DNA of 64,000 nucleotides from a candidate division WS6 bacterium OLB20 (GCA_001567355.1 JYNZ01000003.1:274124-338123), one strand, 5' to 3'. Positions 44,004 to 50,792 are shown, numbered from the stretch's first letter. Notes: generated from the sequence alone by a model not told the origin. Made by a program: numbers and translations.

Positions 44004-44699
44004 ATGCAGCCGTATAATACGCTCATGCAGGAACTTTTTGCCGTGAGTGAGACAAGTCTGGATATTATTCTTCTGCTGCTGACGCTGCCAGTGGTGGCCA
44101 CTATTATTGCATTTGCAAAGCACTTTCTGGGCCTGCGTTCACTCAGCATCTTTATTGTTCTGATCCTCACATTTGTACTGTTTGAGTTTGGCAGCTCTTC
44201 TGACCTTACAACCCATGATATTGCCTCGGGTTTCCGTTACGGACTGCTACTCCTGATGATCACGTTTCTTCTGACCACAGCATCTTACGGAATTATCAAA
44301 AGCTGGGCACTGCACTACTACCCCAAGCTTGCTCTGGTGCTGACATCTGTCTCTCTAGGTTATGCTTTTATACTAATAATCTCGGACAGTCTCGGCGTGC
44401 TCTCATTAATAAGATTTAACGTCTTCTCGCTCCTGCTGGCAGCACTGCTGGCTGAGAGGATTATGAACCTTCTGGCCCGCAAACCTTTTAAAACTGCTGT
44501 ATTTGTCACTGTCGAAAGCACTGTCATCGCAAGTCTCTGCTACCTGGTCATCGGCACACCCGCATTTGGCGGATTTATTCTTGCCTATCCATGGGTACTG
44601 CTTCTGCTCTTCCCGATCAACTATGTGATCGGACGCTATACCGGTCTCCGCCTAAAGGAGTACTACCGCTTCAGGGATATTCTGAACGAAGAGGAATAG
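44004..44699 (+). CDS. polytopic (about 7 TM) membrane protein, resembles the 7TM module associated with RimK-like ATP-grasp/retropepsin systems
   Basis: 231 aa with about seven hydrophobic helices; 1-nt gap to downstream ATP-grasp gene. Confidence 0.55.
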   Translation: MQPYNTLMQELFAVSETSLDIILLLLTLPVVATIIAFAKHFLGLRSLSIFIVLILTFVLFEFGSSSDLTTHDIASGFRYGLLLLMITFLLTTASYGIIKSWALHYYPKLALVLTSVSLGYAFILIISDSLGVLSLIRFNVFSLLLAALLAERIMNLLARKPFKTAVFVTVESTVIASLCYLVIGTPAFGGFILAYPWVLLLLFPINYVIGRYTGLRLKEYYRFRDILNEEE

Positions 44700-44700
44700 C

Positions 44701-46122
44701 ATGGGACTTTTTACCATGTACCAAAACAGAAAGCGTGTTCTCGGACTGAACGAACGCGGTCTCAGGTACATTCGAAAGTACAACAAACCCTCAGCTATAG
44801 AGATTGCAGACAACAAACTCAGCACAAAAGAGGTGCTGAACGCTGCTGATATCCCGACACCCAAGCTGATTGACGTGATTCCAGGCCAGGTGGCGTTTGA
44901 AAATTTTGACTGGACGCAGCTTCCGAAAAGCTTTGTGATGAAGCCGGTCATGGGTCTTGAGGGAGGCGGCATTGAACTCTTGTATAACAAAGACAAAGAG
45001 GGCCGCTGGATCAAAAGCGATAAAAGCAAGGTTGATGTCGACGATCTGAAACAGAAAGGCCGTGGCATCCTTGAAGGACGTTATTCACTGTATAACGCTC
45101 CTGATACCATCATGTTTGAGGAGCGCATCAAGCCGCATAAGAGCTTTAAATACTACACCTATAAGGGGACTCCGGATGTCAGAGTCATCGTGTTTAACAA
45201 GATCCCGGTAATGGCCATGCTGCGACTGCCTACACGCGAGTCTGAAGGCAAGGCTAATCTTGATAAGGGCGCCATCGGGGTCGGTATCGACATTGCCAAG
45301 GGTGCCACAACAAACGCGATCCAGGGTAAGGCGGGTGAGATAGAGTTTATTCCTGGCACCCGGCTTCGCGTCAGCGGTCTTAAGATCCCCTACTGGAACC
45401 AGATCCTTGAGTATGCCATCCGGGCCCAGGAGGCAACAGGACTCTACTTTGCCGGTATCGATTTTCTGATCGACCGCGACCAGGGTCCGGTCATTGTTGA
45501 AATGAACGCACGGCCGGGTCTCTCGATCCAGCTTGCTAACGAAGACGGTCTCAGGTGGCGTCTGGGCAAAGCGGCACACGTCAGGGTCAAGACACACGAC
45601 AAGGGCATCCGCCTGGCCAAGGACCTGTTTGGCGGAGAGATTGATGAAGAGATTGCCAGTGTATCAGGTAAGGAGGTAATCGGTATCTACGAGAATGTCT
45701 CACTGATAAATACAAACGGTCAGGAGTTGCAGACAAAGGCCAAAATCGATACCGGTGCCGACAGCACATCGGTAGACGTATCGCTTGCCCACCGGCTCGG
45801 CTATTCGGATCTGATTGAGCGCTGGAACGCACTTAACCTTCCTGCCGAAATTCCCCGCGAAGAAGGAAAACGCCTCGAAAAAGAACTTCAGGAGACGCTG
45901 GTCAACGAGATCGAAGAACTGGTCGATGTGCAGTACGTCAGGTCAAGCCATGGCAGCAGTCTGCGTCCGTATATCCGGCTCAACATGCGCATCAAGGACA
46001 CGCTGTTTGAAACCAAGGCATCGCTTTACGACCGCAGTAAACTCACCTACCCTGTCATTGTCGGCCGCAAGTCGCTGACCAGGTTTCTTGTTGATCCAAG
46101 CAAGCGCAGGACCTCAATATGA
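44701..46122 (+). CDS. alpha-L-glutamate-ligase-like (RimK-related) ATP-grasp enzyme fused to a C-terminal retropepsin-like aspartic peptidase domain
   Basis: ATP-grasp motifs (VMKPVMGLEGGGIEL, GIDFLIDRDQGPVIVEMNARPGL); C-terminal KAKIDTGADSTSVD matches the DTGA motif of the domain annotated as putative ATP-dependent zinc protease. Confidence 0.75.
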   Translation: MGLFTMYQNRKRVLGLNERGLRYIRKYNKPSAIEIADNKLSTKEVLNAADIPTPKLIDVIPGQVAFENFDWTQLPKSFVMKPVMGLEGGGIELLYNKDKEGRWIKSDKSKVDVDDLKQKGRGILEGRYSLYNAPDTIMFEERIKPHKSFKYYTYKGTPDVRVIVFNKIPVMAMLRLPTRESEGKANLDKGAIGVGIDIAKGATTNAIQGKAGEIEFIPGTRLRVSGLKIPYWNQILEYAIRAQEATGLYFAGIDFLIDRDQGPVIVEMNARPGLSIQLANEDGLRWRLGKAAHVRVKTHDKGIRLAKDLFGGEIDEEIASVSGKEVIGIYENVSLINTNGQELQTKAKIDTGADSTSVDVSLAHRLGYSDLIERWNALNLPAEIPREEGKRLEKELQETLVNEIEELVDVQYVRSSHGSSLRPYIRLNMRIKDTLFETKASLYDRSKLTYPVIVGRKSLTRFLVDPSKRRTSI

Positions 46123-48619: not shown

Positions 48620-48774
48620 CCCACTATTCACCCTCGATTGTGGTATAATTCAGCTATATTGGTGGATTTATGGGTCATACTGTGACCAGTGATCCCCCAA
48701 TATCCTAACATCAATACCGCTGAAATTCGGAATTCCTGCGTCTAGCAGTATTTTCTTATTAGGGAAAACGTGCC

Positions 48775-49761
48775 ATGAACATGGTTACAAGCAAGCTACA
48801 TACAGATCTTTACCTCATAGCAGCAAAGCAGATCGGTCTTAGGACACATGTAATCAACAGCGAGTTTGCCTATGTCGAAATCACTGACGGTCAAAAGATA
48901 TTGCGGATCAAAAATACAAGCTTGTCATCAAACGATATAGTCGCTGCAACCCTGGCCGGGAGTAAGGTGATTGCCTCAAAACTGCTTGATGAGGATGGCA
49001 TTCTGGTACCAAAACAGCATTACTTTGGCTCAAGGAATGATCCTGTTACGCCGGAAACTATCGAGGAAATTGTGAAAACAGCACACGACCTCTACCCTCT
49101 TGTACTCAAGAGAGCGCATGGCTCAGGTGGACATGGTGTGTACGTTAATGTCCAGGATGAGGAACAGCTGCGAAAGATGTATGGGCGTCTGCTGAATAAT
49201 TATAACCCCGCAGTCGTAATAATTGAGGAGTATATCCAGGGCAAAGACTATAGAATACTGGTCTATAAAGACAGAGTTATCGATGTAATCCACCGCATAC
49301 CCGCATATATCACCGGCGACGGAACCAGTACCGTAGCTGAACTTATTGAAGCAAAGAATCAGGAGCGCAAGGCGTTGCGAATTGCACAGATACCTTTCAA
49401 AAAAGACCGGACTTTTCCTTGAGAAGCAGGGACTGAAATATTCCGACGTGCCTGATAGCGGCAGCCGGATAACAGTTATCGGCAACTGTAATTTCTCACA
49501 AGGCGGAGAAACAGCAGGATACCTTTCTCAGAGGTTCATCCGAAAGTTCTGGAGATTGCGAAAAAGGCAGCCCGACTCAGCAGACTATCTCTGTGCGGGG
49601 TCGATGTGATTACGAGGGACATAACAACTGATCCTGAAACGGACCCGAAGTATATTAACGAGATCAATGCAAGTCCCAGCGTAGACGTTCATTACTATGC
49701 TGACAACATGCAGAACCTTAGTGTTGTTAAAGATATCCTGACAATCGAATTCAATCGTTAA
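48775..49761 (+). CDS. RimK/cyanophycin-synthetase-type ATP-grasp ligase, interrupted by two single-base frameshifts (near 49414..49417 and 49520..49530)
   Basis: ORFs 48775..49422 and 49346..49609 plus a third frame to 49761 together give VIIEEYIQGKDYRILV...NCNFSQGGETA...VHPKVLEIAKKAARLSRLSLCGVDVITRD...EINASPSVDVHYY; TAATG overlap with next gene. Confidence 0.65.
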
Positions 49762-50792
49762 TGGCAGCGAACATACACCTACAACAGTACCTTAATGCCG
49801 CTGACAGACTGCCGCTGAGTTACAGCAAGCTGGACAGTGGAACTGCTGAATTCCGTTACAGAACGCACAGATTTCTGATCATCGGAGCTGACACCCCGAT
49901 AAATGACTCTTCCAGTGCAACCATCACCCGGTACAAACACCGTTCGCAGCGCATCCTGGCTGAAAAGGGTCTGACCGTACCAAGATTTGAGAAATGCAGT
50001 ACAGAAAAGGAGTTTGTGAACAGGCTGAAGCAGTTTGACTGCGATATTGTGGTAAAACCGACGGACGGAATCGGCGGCAAAGGTGTCAGCATTAAACCGC
50101 AATCACCCGAAGACAAACGCGAGGCATTCCGTATTGCCAAAGCAGAGAGCAAAACAGGGCGGGTATTAATCGAACAGTACATTGAAGGTTCACACTACCG
50201 GATTCTGATTCTGGATGGCAAAATGATTGCTGCTGCGAGACGCTATCCGGCGTCGGTAACAGGAAATGGTTCAGATACTATTGATAGTCTGATTAACAGC
50301 TACAATCTGGCGTGTAAGCATGACTCTTCGCGCGCACCGATCAGGGTCGACTCTGAAGTCGCAAACTGCCTGCGCGAGCAAAACATTGCAATTACCGATA
50401 TTCCTGCAGCCGGTGTCCGGATTGAACTGAGACGCAACTGTAACCTCTCTACTGGAGGAACGACAGCTGAATGCACTGATAGTGTCCCTGAGGTCGCGAT
50501 CAGAGAAGCAATTGCAGCTGCAGGATCGTTATGCCTGAGGTTTGCAGGAGTCGATATTATCTACACCCCTGGTGGTGAAGCATTCATCAATGAGGTCAAT
50601 TGCAACCCCGGAATGCGCATCCACTACTACCCCAGTTCAGGAAGGACAATTGATGTTGCCCGTTACGTTCTGCAGGCAATTCTGGATGAGTATGACCGGA
50701 TGGATCTGCAGCTTCTAGCTGCCCCGAAGACTGCGCTTGATCACGTCGAGGTGCTCGAGGGACTCACTGATACCGTTAATGACAGTCTGTAG
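49761..50792 (+). CDS. RimK/cyanophycin-synthetase-type ATP-grasp ligase (paralog of the preceding gene)
   Basis: VLIEQYIEGSHYRILILDGKMIAAARR, NCNLSTGGTTAECTD, FAGVDIIYTPGGEAFINEVNCNPGM. Confidence 0.75.
   Translation: MAANIHLQQYLNAADRLPLSYSKLDSGTAEFRYRTHRFLIIGADTPINDSSSATITRYKHRSQRILAEKGLTVPRFEKCSTEKEFVNRLKQFDCDIVVKPTDGIGGKGVSIKPQSPEDKREAFRIAKAESKTGRVLIEQYIEGSHYRILILDGKMIAAARRYPASVTGNGSDTIDSLINSYNLACKHDSSRAPIRVDSEVANCLREQNIAITDIPAAGVRIELRRNCNLSTGGTTAECTDSVPEVAIREAIAAAGSLCLRFAGVDIIYTPGGEAFINEVNCNPGMRIHYYPSSGRTIDVARYVLQAILDEYDRMDLQLLAAPKTALDHVEVLEGLTDTVNDSL

Follow-up and report, generated by a model that had tools for sequence, protein, structure and literature searches.

A candidate operon for ribosome-independent peptide ligation and trimming, combining an Rlo-like core with free-standing relatives of cyanophycin synthetase domains, in a candidate division WS6 bacterium

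A stretch of 64,000 nucleotides from the tiny, uncultured candidate division WS6 bacterium OLB20 (GCA_001567355.1, JYNZ01000003.1:274124-338123), referred to in its full length as the window, contains a run of six genes, g1-g6 (44004-50792, + strand), encoding a seven-transmembrane (7TM) protein, four ATP-grasp ligases, one of which is fused to a retropepsin-like domain, and a stand-alone Mur-type ligase. We lean, if only slightly, towards reading these genes as a single operon for membrane-associated, ATP-dependent and ribosome-independent ligation and trimming of peptides. The core pair, g1 and g2, is by sequence comparison the counterpart of RloB, RloC and RloA, a system itself related to RimK/RimB, and the accessory ligases g3-g6 most likely derive from the same stock as cyanophycin synthetase (CphA). 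The operon most likely makes and trims an acidic, possibly branched peptide, either a polymer or a tail, at the membrane. This reading builds on the gene order, the family and fold assignments, the conservation of catalytic residues and the recurrence of the locus with turnover of its gene cassettes, all of which were shown in the analysis.

All six open reading frames (ORFs) were recovered on the same strand in the ORF listing (g1, 44004-44699; g2, 44701-46122; g3, 46119-47357; g4, 47357-48619; g5, 48775 to ~49761; g6, 49761-50792), downstream of the gene order nusG-rplK-rplA-rplJ-rplL. A single nucleotide separates g1 from g2 (TAG-C-ATG), g2 and g3 overlap by 4 nt (ATGA), and both the g3/g4 (TGATG) and the g5/g6 (TAATG) junctions consist of a 1-nt overlap; g4 and g5 are separated by a spacer of 155 nt. 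The GAG GAG GAA codons at the 3' end of g1 double as the Shine-Dalgarno sequence of g2. A hairpin resembling an intrinsic terminator, with a 12-bp stem (8 GC pairs) followed by a T-run, lies downstream of rplL (43955-43991, +) and would form the upstream boundary of the operon. The picture given in the initial annotation, of six co-directional, overlapping or near-abutting genes after an rplL terminator, is thus confirmed for the ORFs, the overlaps and the hairpin alike. At the far end, a second mreB paralogue (50715-51719, -) is convergent with g6 and overlaps its last 78 nt.

A candidate promoter, TAGACT-17-TATAAT (43990-44018, +), was recognized by consensus match alone (10 of 12 positions), and its -10 element falls within the annotated start of g1. 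The annotated start at 44004 is probably wrong, and the ATG at 44025, giving a protein of 224 aa, the real one, since close homologues begin at the corresponding methionine (residue 8). The putative transcription start at ~44025 would then fall on the g1 ATG, possibly making the g1 mRNA leaderless. In the g4-g5 spacer, an extended -10-like element (TGgTATAAT, 48641-48649, +) was read from the sequence and is a possible internal promoter for g5-g6; the promoter scan demands a -35 element, and the motif therefore lies outside the scan output. Comparison with Rfam at the gathering threshold revealed five tRNAs in the window and no structured RNA within the operon.

The g1-g6 proteins are identical to KXK26677-KXK26682 of OLB20, a metagenome-assembled genome of the Dojkabacteria from an anammox reactor. 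Their GenBank names (hypothetical protein, 'S6--L-glutamate ligase' for g2, 'argininosuccinate lyase', 'MurE', and 'cyanophycin synthetase' for both g5 and g6) are automatic, and none is an experimentally tested function. No PADLOC model matched g1-g4 or g6, which gives no indication of a known anti-phage defence system. Likewise, literature searches on cyanophycin in Patescibacteria and on ATP-grasp enzymes in Dojkabacteria returned nothing relevant, and no paper on this locus in the candidate phyla radiation (CPR).

Profile hidden Markov model (HMM) searches placed all six ORFs in the families expected from the initial annotation and not in unrelated ones. The first gene of the core pair, g1, encodes a membrane protein of the RloB/7TM_transglut family: its match to Pfam 7TM_transglut (PF14402; E = 3e-12, 47 bits, cut-off 25) agrees with the 7TM protein proposed at the outset, whereas the match to the NCBIfam RloB model is restricted to positions 314-507 of 508 (41.9 bits, cut-off 900). 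With its 224-231 aa, g1 lacks the inactive transglutaminase domain, which is periplasmic in RloB. The AlphaFold (AF2) model of g1 (predicted local distance difference test, pLDDT, 88) consists of seven long helices, and no convincing structural relative was found for it. The adjoining g2 combines an RloC-type ATP-grasp ligase (residues ~10-291) with a retropepsin-like domain (residues ~324-470). The protein matches ATPgrasp_ST (PF14397; 1e-60, 205.7 bits, cut-off 31.4) and TIGR02291 (4.6e-76, 255.8 bits), the latter under its equivalog cut-off of 314.2, and the C-terminal domain matches Zn_protease (PF05618; 3e-11, 43.7 bits, cut-off 27), RloA3 (1.9e-13) and PDB entry 9g58 (6e-5). The DTGA motif is intact (residues 350-353, nt 45748-45759), so that the fusion of an ATP-grasp with a DTGA retropepsin-like domain, as first described, holds for both of its parts. 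The peptidase domain is joined to the C-terminus of the ligase without a signal peptide, and g2 is predicted to be cytoplasmic.

In CphA1, lengthening of the Asp backbone is the task of the G domain, and the M domain attaches Arg to the carboxylate of the side chain (PMC9427784). The stand-alone Mur-type ligase g4 is the equivalent of the CphA1 M domain. It comprises the middle and C-terminal Mur-ligase domains alone (Mcore and Mlid); its P-loop starts at residue 9 (GTKGKT, nt 47384-47401; a DFAHE motif follows at nt 48191-48205), and it is therefore without the N-terminal UDP-substrate-binding domain. Besides matching Mur_ligase_M, g4 has cyanophycin synthetase as its best NCBIfam model (TIGR02068, positions 562-859, 5e-27), and the best MurE model reaches 1e-10 and 40.7 bits (cut-off 373). 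A sequence search of the PDB returned CphA1 as the only matches. With a profile of 15 family members, searched against 1.84 billion (1.84e9) representative proteins, ~100 stand-alone proteins of 400-435 aa were retrieved first, followed by full-length CphA1 over residues ~477-865. Similarly, the five best Foldseek matches of the AF2 model (pLDDT 92.6) were all CphA1 (E 2e-22 to 4e-20; query-normalized TM-score, TMq, 0.73-0.76), with MurE (1e-16, TMq 0.62-0.65), pseudomurein pMurE, MurT and FPGS at lower ranks. The residues K14, T15, E89, R265 and H282 correspond to K499, T500, E558, R731 and H748, the ATP- and Mg-binding residues of the TeCphA1 M domain (PMC9427784), and are invariant across the g4 family. 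The likeness to the cyanophycin-synthetase M domain, initially suggested by the P-loop region, is in this way recovered by HMM, PDB sequence, profile search and predicted fold.

Other assignments of g4 were considered and rejected. No PgsB/CapB model is present among its 18 NCBIfam matches at E <= 0.01; MurT folds (TMq 0.46-0.49) fit worse than CphA1; and MurC-F are disfavoured by the missing UDP-binding domain, the sub-equivalog score and the ranking of MurE folds under CphA1. When genome_contigs was scanned with the g4 alignment, 35 of the 38 loci proved to be ordinary Firmicutes Mur ligases drawn in by the generic Mur P-loop pattern, and these were ignored; the true relatives, at the remaining three loci (L007-L009), have no ATP-grasp neighbours. 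At L007 (7706-10242), on a contig labelled Gammaproteobacteria, polA and a shikimate-kinase gene flank a tandem pair of stand-alone M-type Mur-like paralogues (424 and 421 aa), with no ATP-grasp gene nearby.

The ligase encoded by g3 is an ATP-grasp of the L-amino-acid-ligase (LAL) type, matching both ATP-grasp_4 (PF13535; 48.6 bits, cut-off 27) and LAL_C2 (PF18603; 30.8 bits, cut-off 29.4), which bears out the LAL-like call made earlier. Its best PDB match is BacD (7e-9), although the BacD equivalog score is 31.9 against a cut-off of 850.

The last two genes were first described as CphA-type ATP-grasp paralogues, one of them frameshifted, and this was confirmed: both are CphA G-domain-like, g6 being an intact stand-alone enzyme and g5 being interrupted by two indels (~328 aa if repaired). 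The g6 protein matches TIGR02068 over CphA positions 207-473 (3e-63) and PDB entry 7WAC, TeCphA1, at 1.4e-34. It retains six of the seven TeCphA1 G-domain residues with catalytic or Asp-binding roles (H267, R309, R323, N394, S396, G456 and R458; PMC9427784), the equivalents of N394/S396 lying in NLSTGG (nt 50442-50459) and those of G456/R458 in NPGMRIH (nt 50604-50624); H267 is replaced by Gly. In the alignment R323 and N394 are kept in Ngg-type ligases too, and therefore only PGxR[MIL]H is specifically common to g6 and CphA1. The Asp-binding residues were accordingly dropped as decisive proof of Asp specificity. For g5, a divergent second G-type gene with 26% identity to g6, the N-terminal part matches CphA positions 167-338 (2e-31). 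It carries S and D at the CphA1 456 and 458 positions, and in the g5 subtype, which includes L045_B and L050_321 of the related loci L045 and L050, the R458 equivalent is Asp or Glu; this subtype may use a different nucleophile.

The g5 indels are located in an A6 run (49399-49404) and at ~49514-49522. Homology follows the first frame to ~49400, the +1 frame to ~49520 (KKTGLFLEKQGLKYSDVPDSGSRITVIGNCNFSQGGETA), and again the first frame to the TAA at 49759-49761, whereas the intact orthologues in L045 and L050 stay in a single frame throughout. The OLB assemblies derive from Ion Torrent reads, a data type prone to frameshifts, and 'persistent frameshifts' in them were corrected by script (PMC4821891). 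Because of this source, and because a PBP2-like gene elsewhere in the window is frameshifted as well, the indels are possibly residual errors. Conversely, a Logan assembly built from a much later run (SRR29904084) agrees with the window at 100% identity across 21,263 bp, g5 among them, and both truncated ORFs are on record from NCBI and from Logan. A real pseudogene is the probable, though unproven, explanation. Programmed frameshifting was set aside, as nothing points to it and the L045 and L050 orthologues read through in one frame.

The CphA-like genes invite the explanation that g6 and g4 are the G and M subunits of a split cyanophycin synthetase that stores nitrogen as genuine cyanophycin, a poly-Asp chain branched with Arg, while the remaining genes serve as accessories. 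The retention in g6 of every TeCphA1 Asp-substrate and catalytic residue bar His267, the standing of g4 as nearest stand-alone M-domain relative with all ATP/Mg residues kept, and the existing GenBank names of g5 and g6 speak for it. However, no region of g4-g6 matches CphA positions 1-160, so that the N domain, the polymer anchor in CphA1, is missing, and the TIGR02068 scores of the G-like (g5, g6) and M-like (g4) genes (214, 109 and 94 bits), including the 214 and 94 bits of the two would-be subunits, are far from the equivalog cut-off of 850. The absence of a cyanophycinase from the neighbourhood, noted initially, was upheld: a comparison of ~47 of the window's larger ORFs with Pfam turned up neither cyanophycinase (Peptidase_S51) nor isoaspartyl dipeptidase. 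Furthermore, the sharing of R323/N394 with Ngg-type ligases means that these residues are not Asp-specific, in most related loci G-type ligases occur without an M-type gene, and the genes belong to a setting of membrane protein and peptidase that is not linked with cyanophycin. A genuine cyanophycin synthetase is on this balance very unlikely.

The neighbourhoods of related loci were collected via homologues of g4, g6 and g1. At least seven related genomes share the arrangement of rplL, 7TM gene, RloC::retropepsin fusion, two to five more ligases and a second mreB. In L045 the 7TM and RloC::retropepsin genes are followed by an M-type gene, a RimK-like gene (309 aa), a G-type gene (329 aa) and a convergent mreB whose product is 89% identical to that of the window's second mreB. 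L050 (rplL 89%, second mreB 93% identical) has rplKAJL, 7TM, RloC::retropepsin, two unknown ORFs, three ATP-grasps and mreB, with neither an M-type nor a LAL gene; L051 has rplKAJL, 7TM, RloC::retropepsin, ATP-grasp, DUF3541, ATP-grasp and mreB; and L002 has rplJL, 7TM, RloC::retropepsin, a RimK-like gene, a convergent M-type gene, a family 2 glycosyltransferase gene and mreB. In L048, L049 and a JGI contig, rplJL and zero to five inserted genes precede the 7TM gene, an RloC-like gene (493-505 aa), a G-type gene, a gene for a 557-aa protein and a RimK-like gene; in L048 and the JGI contig the series is continued by MATCAP and mreB. Finally, in L046 and L047 a holin-like gene is followed by a 7TM gene (332-341 aa, with longer N-terminal extensions), an RloC-like gene, MATCAP and a convergent M-type gene. 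The g4-type gene thus adjoins the 7TM gene and the RloC-type ligase in the window, L002, L045, L046 and L047, and G-type ligases adjoin them in L045, L048, L049, L050, L051 and the JGI contig. The g3-type LAL gene is absent from the closest relatives, L045 and L050. Away from such islands, the g4 relative occurs with a LAL gene only (L003, L004) or alone (L005, L007, L008).

Two side observations concern these islands. The 557-aa proteins of L048 (10037-11710) and L049 (10009-11682) combine a CphA G-like core with an extension at the N-terminus and with a degenerate M-domain start; they match CphA positions ~182-571, and the equivalents of G456 and R458 are Glu and Tyr. In L051 (Patescibacteria, GCA_043816305.1) the DUF3541 (PF12060) protein is encoded at 12062-13018, between the two island ATP-grasp genes.

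Compared with L045 and L050, identity drops from 89-93% in the flanking proteins to 68-69% in g2, 48-58% in g1 and 30-42% in those accessory ligases that have not been lost; the island turns over quickly. The peptidase also changes. The window, L002 and L045 retain the retropepsin motif DTGA and L048 retains DTG, whereas the catalytic Asp is replaced in L046 (KTG), L047 (NTG) and L049 (NTG). A gene for a MATCAP/QEGLA-family metallopeptidase (PF08014, TIGR02421) adjoins the ligase in L046 (9336-10304, -) and L047 (8423-9403, -) and lies nearby in L048 (14949-16106, -); none is present in the fetched stretch of L049. Peptidase function is thus kept up by exchange between retropepsin and MATCAP, and the core of the system is the 7TM protein, the RloC-type ligase and a peptidase, to which the other ligases, the Mur-type and LAL enzymes included, form an exchangeable accessory set. 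The gene-neighbourhood comparison suggested with the initial annotation therefore showed the locus to recur with its core kept and its accessory ligases variable: it is a conserved but cassette-variable Dojkabacteria island between rplKAJL and a second mreB, and the arrangement, because it recurs in independent genomes, is more than chance.

The location of the island raised the question of a ribosomal role, namely tailing of the ribosomal proteins L7/L12 or S6 in the manner of RimK, with the retropepsin domain playing the part of RimB. The ligase of g2 belongs to the RimK-related superfamily, carries a RimB-like domain and is named 'S6--L-glutamate ligase' in GenBank, and the position after the rplKAJL genes is shared by the window, L002, L048, L049, L050, L051 and the JGI contig. 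Still, g2 scores 18.2 bits against the RimK equivalog PRK10446 (cut-off 331) and 20.3 bits against RimB NF052261 (cut-off 200), and the C-termini of L12 (...VALK, ...VEVK, ...VELK, ...VELA) offer no acidic acceptor tail. Owing to the strong terminator after rplL, the unrelated genes that part rplL from the 7TM gene in L048 and the JGI contig, and the context of L046 and L047, where a holin-like gene precedes the 7TM gene and no ribosomal-protein gene is among the called genes, the adjacency to rplL was rejected as a functional link: the post-rplL position is lineage synteny and no evidence of a ribosomal link. Ribosomal tailing, which would also leave the obligatory 7TM partner unexplained, is highly improbable.

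The variability of the cassettes allows for yet another explanation, in which there is no common pathway: a conserved pair resembling RloBC(A) would sit beside a recombination-prone site that collects unrelated ATP-dependent ligases, g3/g4 and g5/g6 being independent of g1/g2. The accessory content differs genome by genome, g4-type genes occur elsewhere alone or with LAL only, and within the window a 155-nt gap with a possible promoter precedes the disrupted g5. Yet the collected genes are almost exclusively amide-bond ligases of related chemistry and peptidases, not a random assortment; there are overlaps at the g2/g3 (4 nt) and g3/g4 (1 nt) junctions; and g4-type genes stand beside the 7TM and RloC genes in five loci, at ~37-40% and ~31% identity and in two orientations. 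We give this explanation little credence.

Chemistry of the cell envelope must likewise be weighed. In this case the ligases would build or amidate a peptide on a precursor of the cell wall or of a surface glycopolymer, which the 7TM protein flips or exports; variants include a modified peptidoglycan stem, pseudomurein-like synthesis and amidation of uronic acids with amino acids. A Mur-family ligase with Ddl-related ATP-grasps, the rank of MurE and pMurE as next-best folds of g4, the mreB paralogues flanking the locus with mreBC-PBP2 nearby, the glycosyltransferase genes in or beside the island in L002 and L048, and the Pfam name of the g2 family ('sugar-transfer associated') all fit such a role, as does cassette variability like that of surface-polymer loci. 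In rlo mutants of P. aeruginosa, moreover, cell shape, tolerance of hypo-osmotic conditions and resistance to beta-lactams are all impaired (PMC12239564). On the other hand, g4 without its UDP-binding domain is closer to CphA, the island of the window has no glycosyltransferase, the peptidase is cytoplasmic here, and G-type enzymes are known for acting on peptide alpha-carboxylates. The adjacency to mreB is again lineage synteny, no mreB being found among the called genes around the L046 and L047 islands. An envelope function is, in our estimate, unlikely.

Returning to the favoured reading, peptide ligation and trimming at the membrane, the following course of reaction can be proposed. The ATP-grasps (g2, g6, and g5 where intact) would convert a terminal alpha-carboxylate to an acyl phosphate and add amino acids singly, g6 having retained the counterparts of residues with which CphA1 binds the incoming Asp. 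The Mur-type g4 could activate a side-chain carboxylate and add a branching residue, as in cyanophycin, and the LAL encoded by g3 might supply or cap with a dipeptide unit. Shortening or recycling of the chain would fall to the retropepsin domain of g2, while g1 may serve as anchor, primer or exporter of the product at the cytoplasmic face of the membrane. The common product of g1-g6, its chemistry and the role of the membrane protein are what we infer from the observations above. The initial suggestion of a non-ribosomal poly-amino-acid, or of such a tail on a protein, with a dedicated peptidase and a membrane partner, fits all of the evidence as well as the precedents of RimK/RimB and rloABC; its status has nevertheless stayed that of a proposal, because no product or acceptor is identifiable from the sequence.

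Several points weigh against this reading. Neither product, acceptor nor precursor can be read from the sequence, and no convincing structural relative of the g1 model points to a transport function. With accessory genes this variable, one defined product for the whole lineage is improbable, and since g4 relatives occur alone or with LAL only, g3/g4 are possibly an independent module that landed here. In Pseudomonas RloA is secreted and RloB has a periplasmic domain; neither applies here, and the logic of the system may therefore differ. Within the operon itself, g5 is disrupted in the available sequence, and the 155-nt gap with its possible promoter splits g1-g4 from g5-g6.

A more specific variant of the favoured reading, which we regard as rather unlikely, is that g1 itself is the acceptor, its tail serving as primer for the RloC-, G- and M-type ligases. 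The outcome would be a reversible, possibly branched, membrane-anchored and cyanophycin-like 'tail code', with the tail polymer erased by the retropepsin or the MATCAP peptidase, in possible parallel to tubulin-tail tyrosination/glutamylation and to RimK acting on S6. The C-terminal motif of g1 (GRYTGLRLKEYYRFRDIL) is followed by the tail NEEE, and 7TM homologues have an invariant motif, G-x-x-x-G-x-R-x-x-E-Y-x-R-F, before a short C-terminal tail. With seven transmembrane helices and an outside N-terminus, deduced from the periplasmic N-terminal domain of RloB (PMC12239564), the g1 tail would therefore be cytoplasmic. The terminal residue is D or E in 20 of 26 g1 homologues and in five of seven loci (...NEEE, ...SEE, ...IDKD, ...SESD), compared with 6 of 52 proteins in the window background. 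Acidic tail ends are thus common among the homologues, and the pairing with MATCAP would, by analogy, point to protein-tail trimming. The homologues are, however, not independent samples, distant members end in basic residues, and the GAG GAG GAA codons of the tail also serve the initiation of g2.

The Rlo system has clear phenotypes in P. aeruginosa (osmotic tolerance, cell shape, biofilm and antibiotic resistance). The WS6 version is a compact natural experiment on its biochemical function, with a fused peptidase-ligase, a membrane protein cut to its 7TM core and extra ligases, and its six defined proteins are available for reconstitution. The presence of extra G-type (backbone-extending) and M-type (side-chain-branching) ligases suggests that the product is a peptide built on carboxylates. 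Both catalytic halves of cyanophycin synthetase, moreover, exist as free-standing enzyme families, the M type forming ~100 clusters at 50% identity and the G type dozens; these bear on the origin of CphA and provide parts for poly-amino-acid engineering. The turnover of cassettes at a fixed site, between genomes ~90% identical in the flanks, hints at diversifying selection on the product, which, if true, would be relevant to CPR envelopes or host interactions. The core of the system was already known.

Some further features of the window are recorded here. The two mreB paralogues, one in the 33151-36821 (-) operon and one at 50715-51719 (-), encode proteins 46% identical to each other, and the first heads a canonical mreB-mreC-(159-aa ORF)-PBP2 operon. 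One frameshift near 33140-33160 divides the gene for the PBP2/SpoVD-like transpeptidase (32618-34509, -) into an N-terminal ORF of 452 aa (33151-34509) and a remainder of the transpeptidase domain that is read in a different frame (...PELKQKLLGEPWYTGDECNTIIGQG...). Either this rod-complex gene, which is normally essential, has truly become a pseudogene, or an Ion Torrent indel has been left in the sequence. The second mreB is followed by a gene for a conserved 495-aa protein, which has no Pfam match in the window and whose counterparts in L045, L050 and L051 show PEGA, weakly in two of them; the synteny of this mreB, the 495-aa ORF and nucleoside-diphosphate kinase (NDK) is kept in the same three loci. 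Tandem NDK paralogues of 202 and 204 aa (55405-56013 and 56034-56648, -) are followed by the thymidylate kinase gene tmk; the second NDK is kept in L045 and L051, and tmk only in L045. A giant ORF of 2143 aa (9711-16142, -) has no Pfam match at E <= 1e-5, and the neighbouring ORFs at 3567-5000, 4931-5593, 6804-7517 and 8563-9645 have no Pfam match.

Among the closest known systems is rloABC, and the same neighbourhood of three genes was reportedly predicted by Iyer et al. in 2009 (Mol Biosyst 5:1636) by comparative genomics. In P. aeruginosa, RloA is a secreted retropepsin with a signal peptide, RloB an inactive-transglutaminase-7TM protein and RloC an ATP-grasp, and deletion of rloB or rloC suppresses the defects of an rloA1-3 mutant (PMC12239564). 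The suppression implies that the three proteins act in one process. Losing the proteases does harm only if the cell has RloB and RloC, which agrees with a toxic product in need of trimming. The window likewise encodes a 7TM_transglut-family protein, a TIGR02291/ATPgrasp_ST ligase and a retropepsin-like peptidase together. It differs in that g1 is the 7TM part only, without the periplasmic transglutaminase domain, and in its CPR host, RloB having been reported as 96% proteobacterial (PMC12239564). Furthermore, the peptidase, which as RloA is separate and secreted, is here fused to a cytoplasmic ligase, and three to four extra ligases are present in the operon.

RimK-type ATP-grasps extend a C-terminal alpha-carboxylate via an acyl phosphate. 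In the RimK, RimB and RimBK hybrid systems, ribosomal protein S6 is poly-alpha-glutamylated and trimmed again; RimB not only trims the product but also stimulates RimK, and fusions of RimB with RimK are active (PMC11957791). The pairing or fusion of an ATP-grasp ligase with a retropepsin-like endopeptidase that removes the added residues is a likeness shared with g2. In the known hybrids, however, RimB is N-terminal to RimK, an order reversed in g2, and the g2 ligase is RloC-type, with equivalog scores far under the cut-offs and with a membrane partner.

With CphA1 (PDB 7LG5 and 7WAC) the operon shares G-domain homologues (g5 and g6), the fold and ATP/Mg residues of the M domain (g4) and, in g6, Asp-substrate-binding residues, of which R323 and N394 are not diagnostic; the logic of a backbone ligase and a side-chain ligase is available. 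The G- and M-like parts nevertheless reside on separate polypeptides with no N domain and with His267 changed to Gly, the M-type gene is dispensable in related loci, and the scores lie far under the equivalog cut-offs. CphA2 structures (PDB 7TA5 and 8FXH) are among the PDB matches of g6, and the 557-aa proteins of L048 and L049 are reminiscent of CphA2 in being G-centred with a reduced M region; still, no protein of this type is encoded in the window, and the replacement of Gly456 and Arg458 by Glu and Tyr sets these proteins apart.

PgsBCA/CapBCA combine a Mur-type amide ligase without a UDP-binding domain with small membrane proteins and make and export poly-gamma-glutamate; here, the 7TM partner g1 is unrelated, and ATP-grasp ligases and a peptidase are part of the operon. 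The eukaryotic tubulin tyrosine ligase, an ATP-grasp, and the MATCAP detyrosinase add and remove residues on the acidic C-terminal tail of tubulin. L046, L047 and L048 pair an ATP-grasp ligase with a MATCAP-family (PF08014) metallopeptidase in functional analogy to this cycle, whereas the window has the retropepsin domain in place of a MATCAP gene, and no tubulin-like acceptor was identified. By its defining features the system of the window is thus not a canonical CphA1, RimK or MurC-F; it is an expanded and rearranged variant of the known RloBC(A)/RimK-RimB kind, joined by free-standing relatives of the CphA domains.

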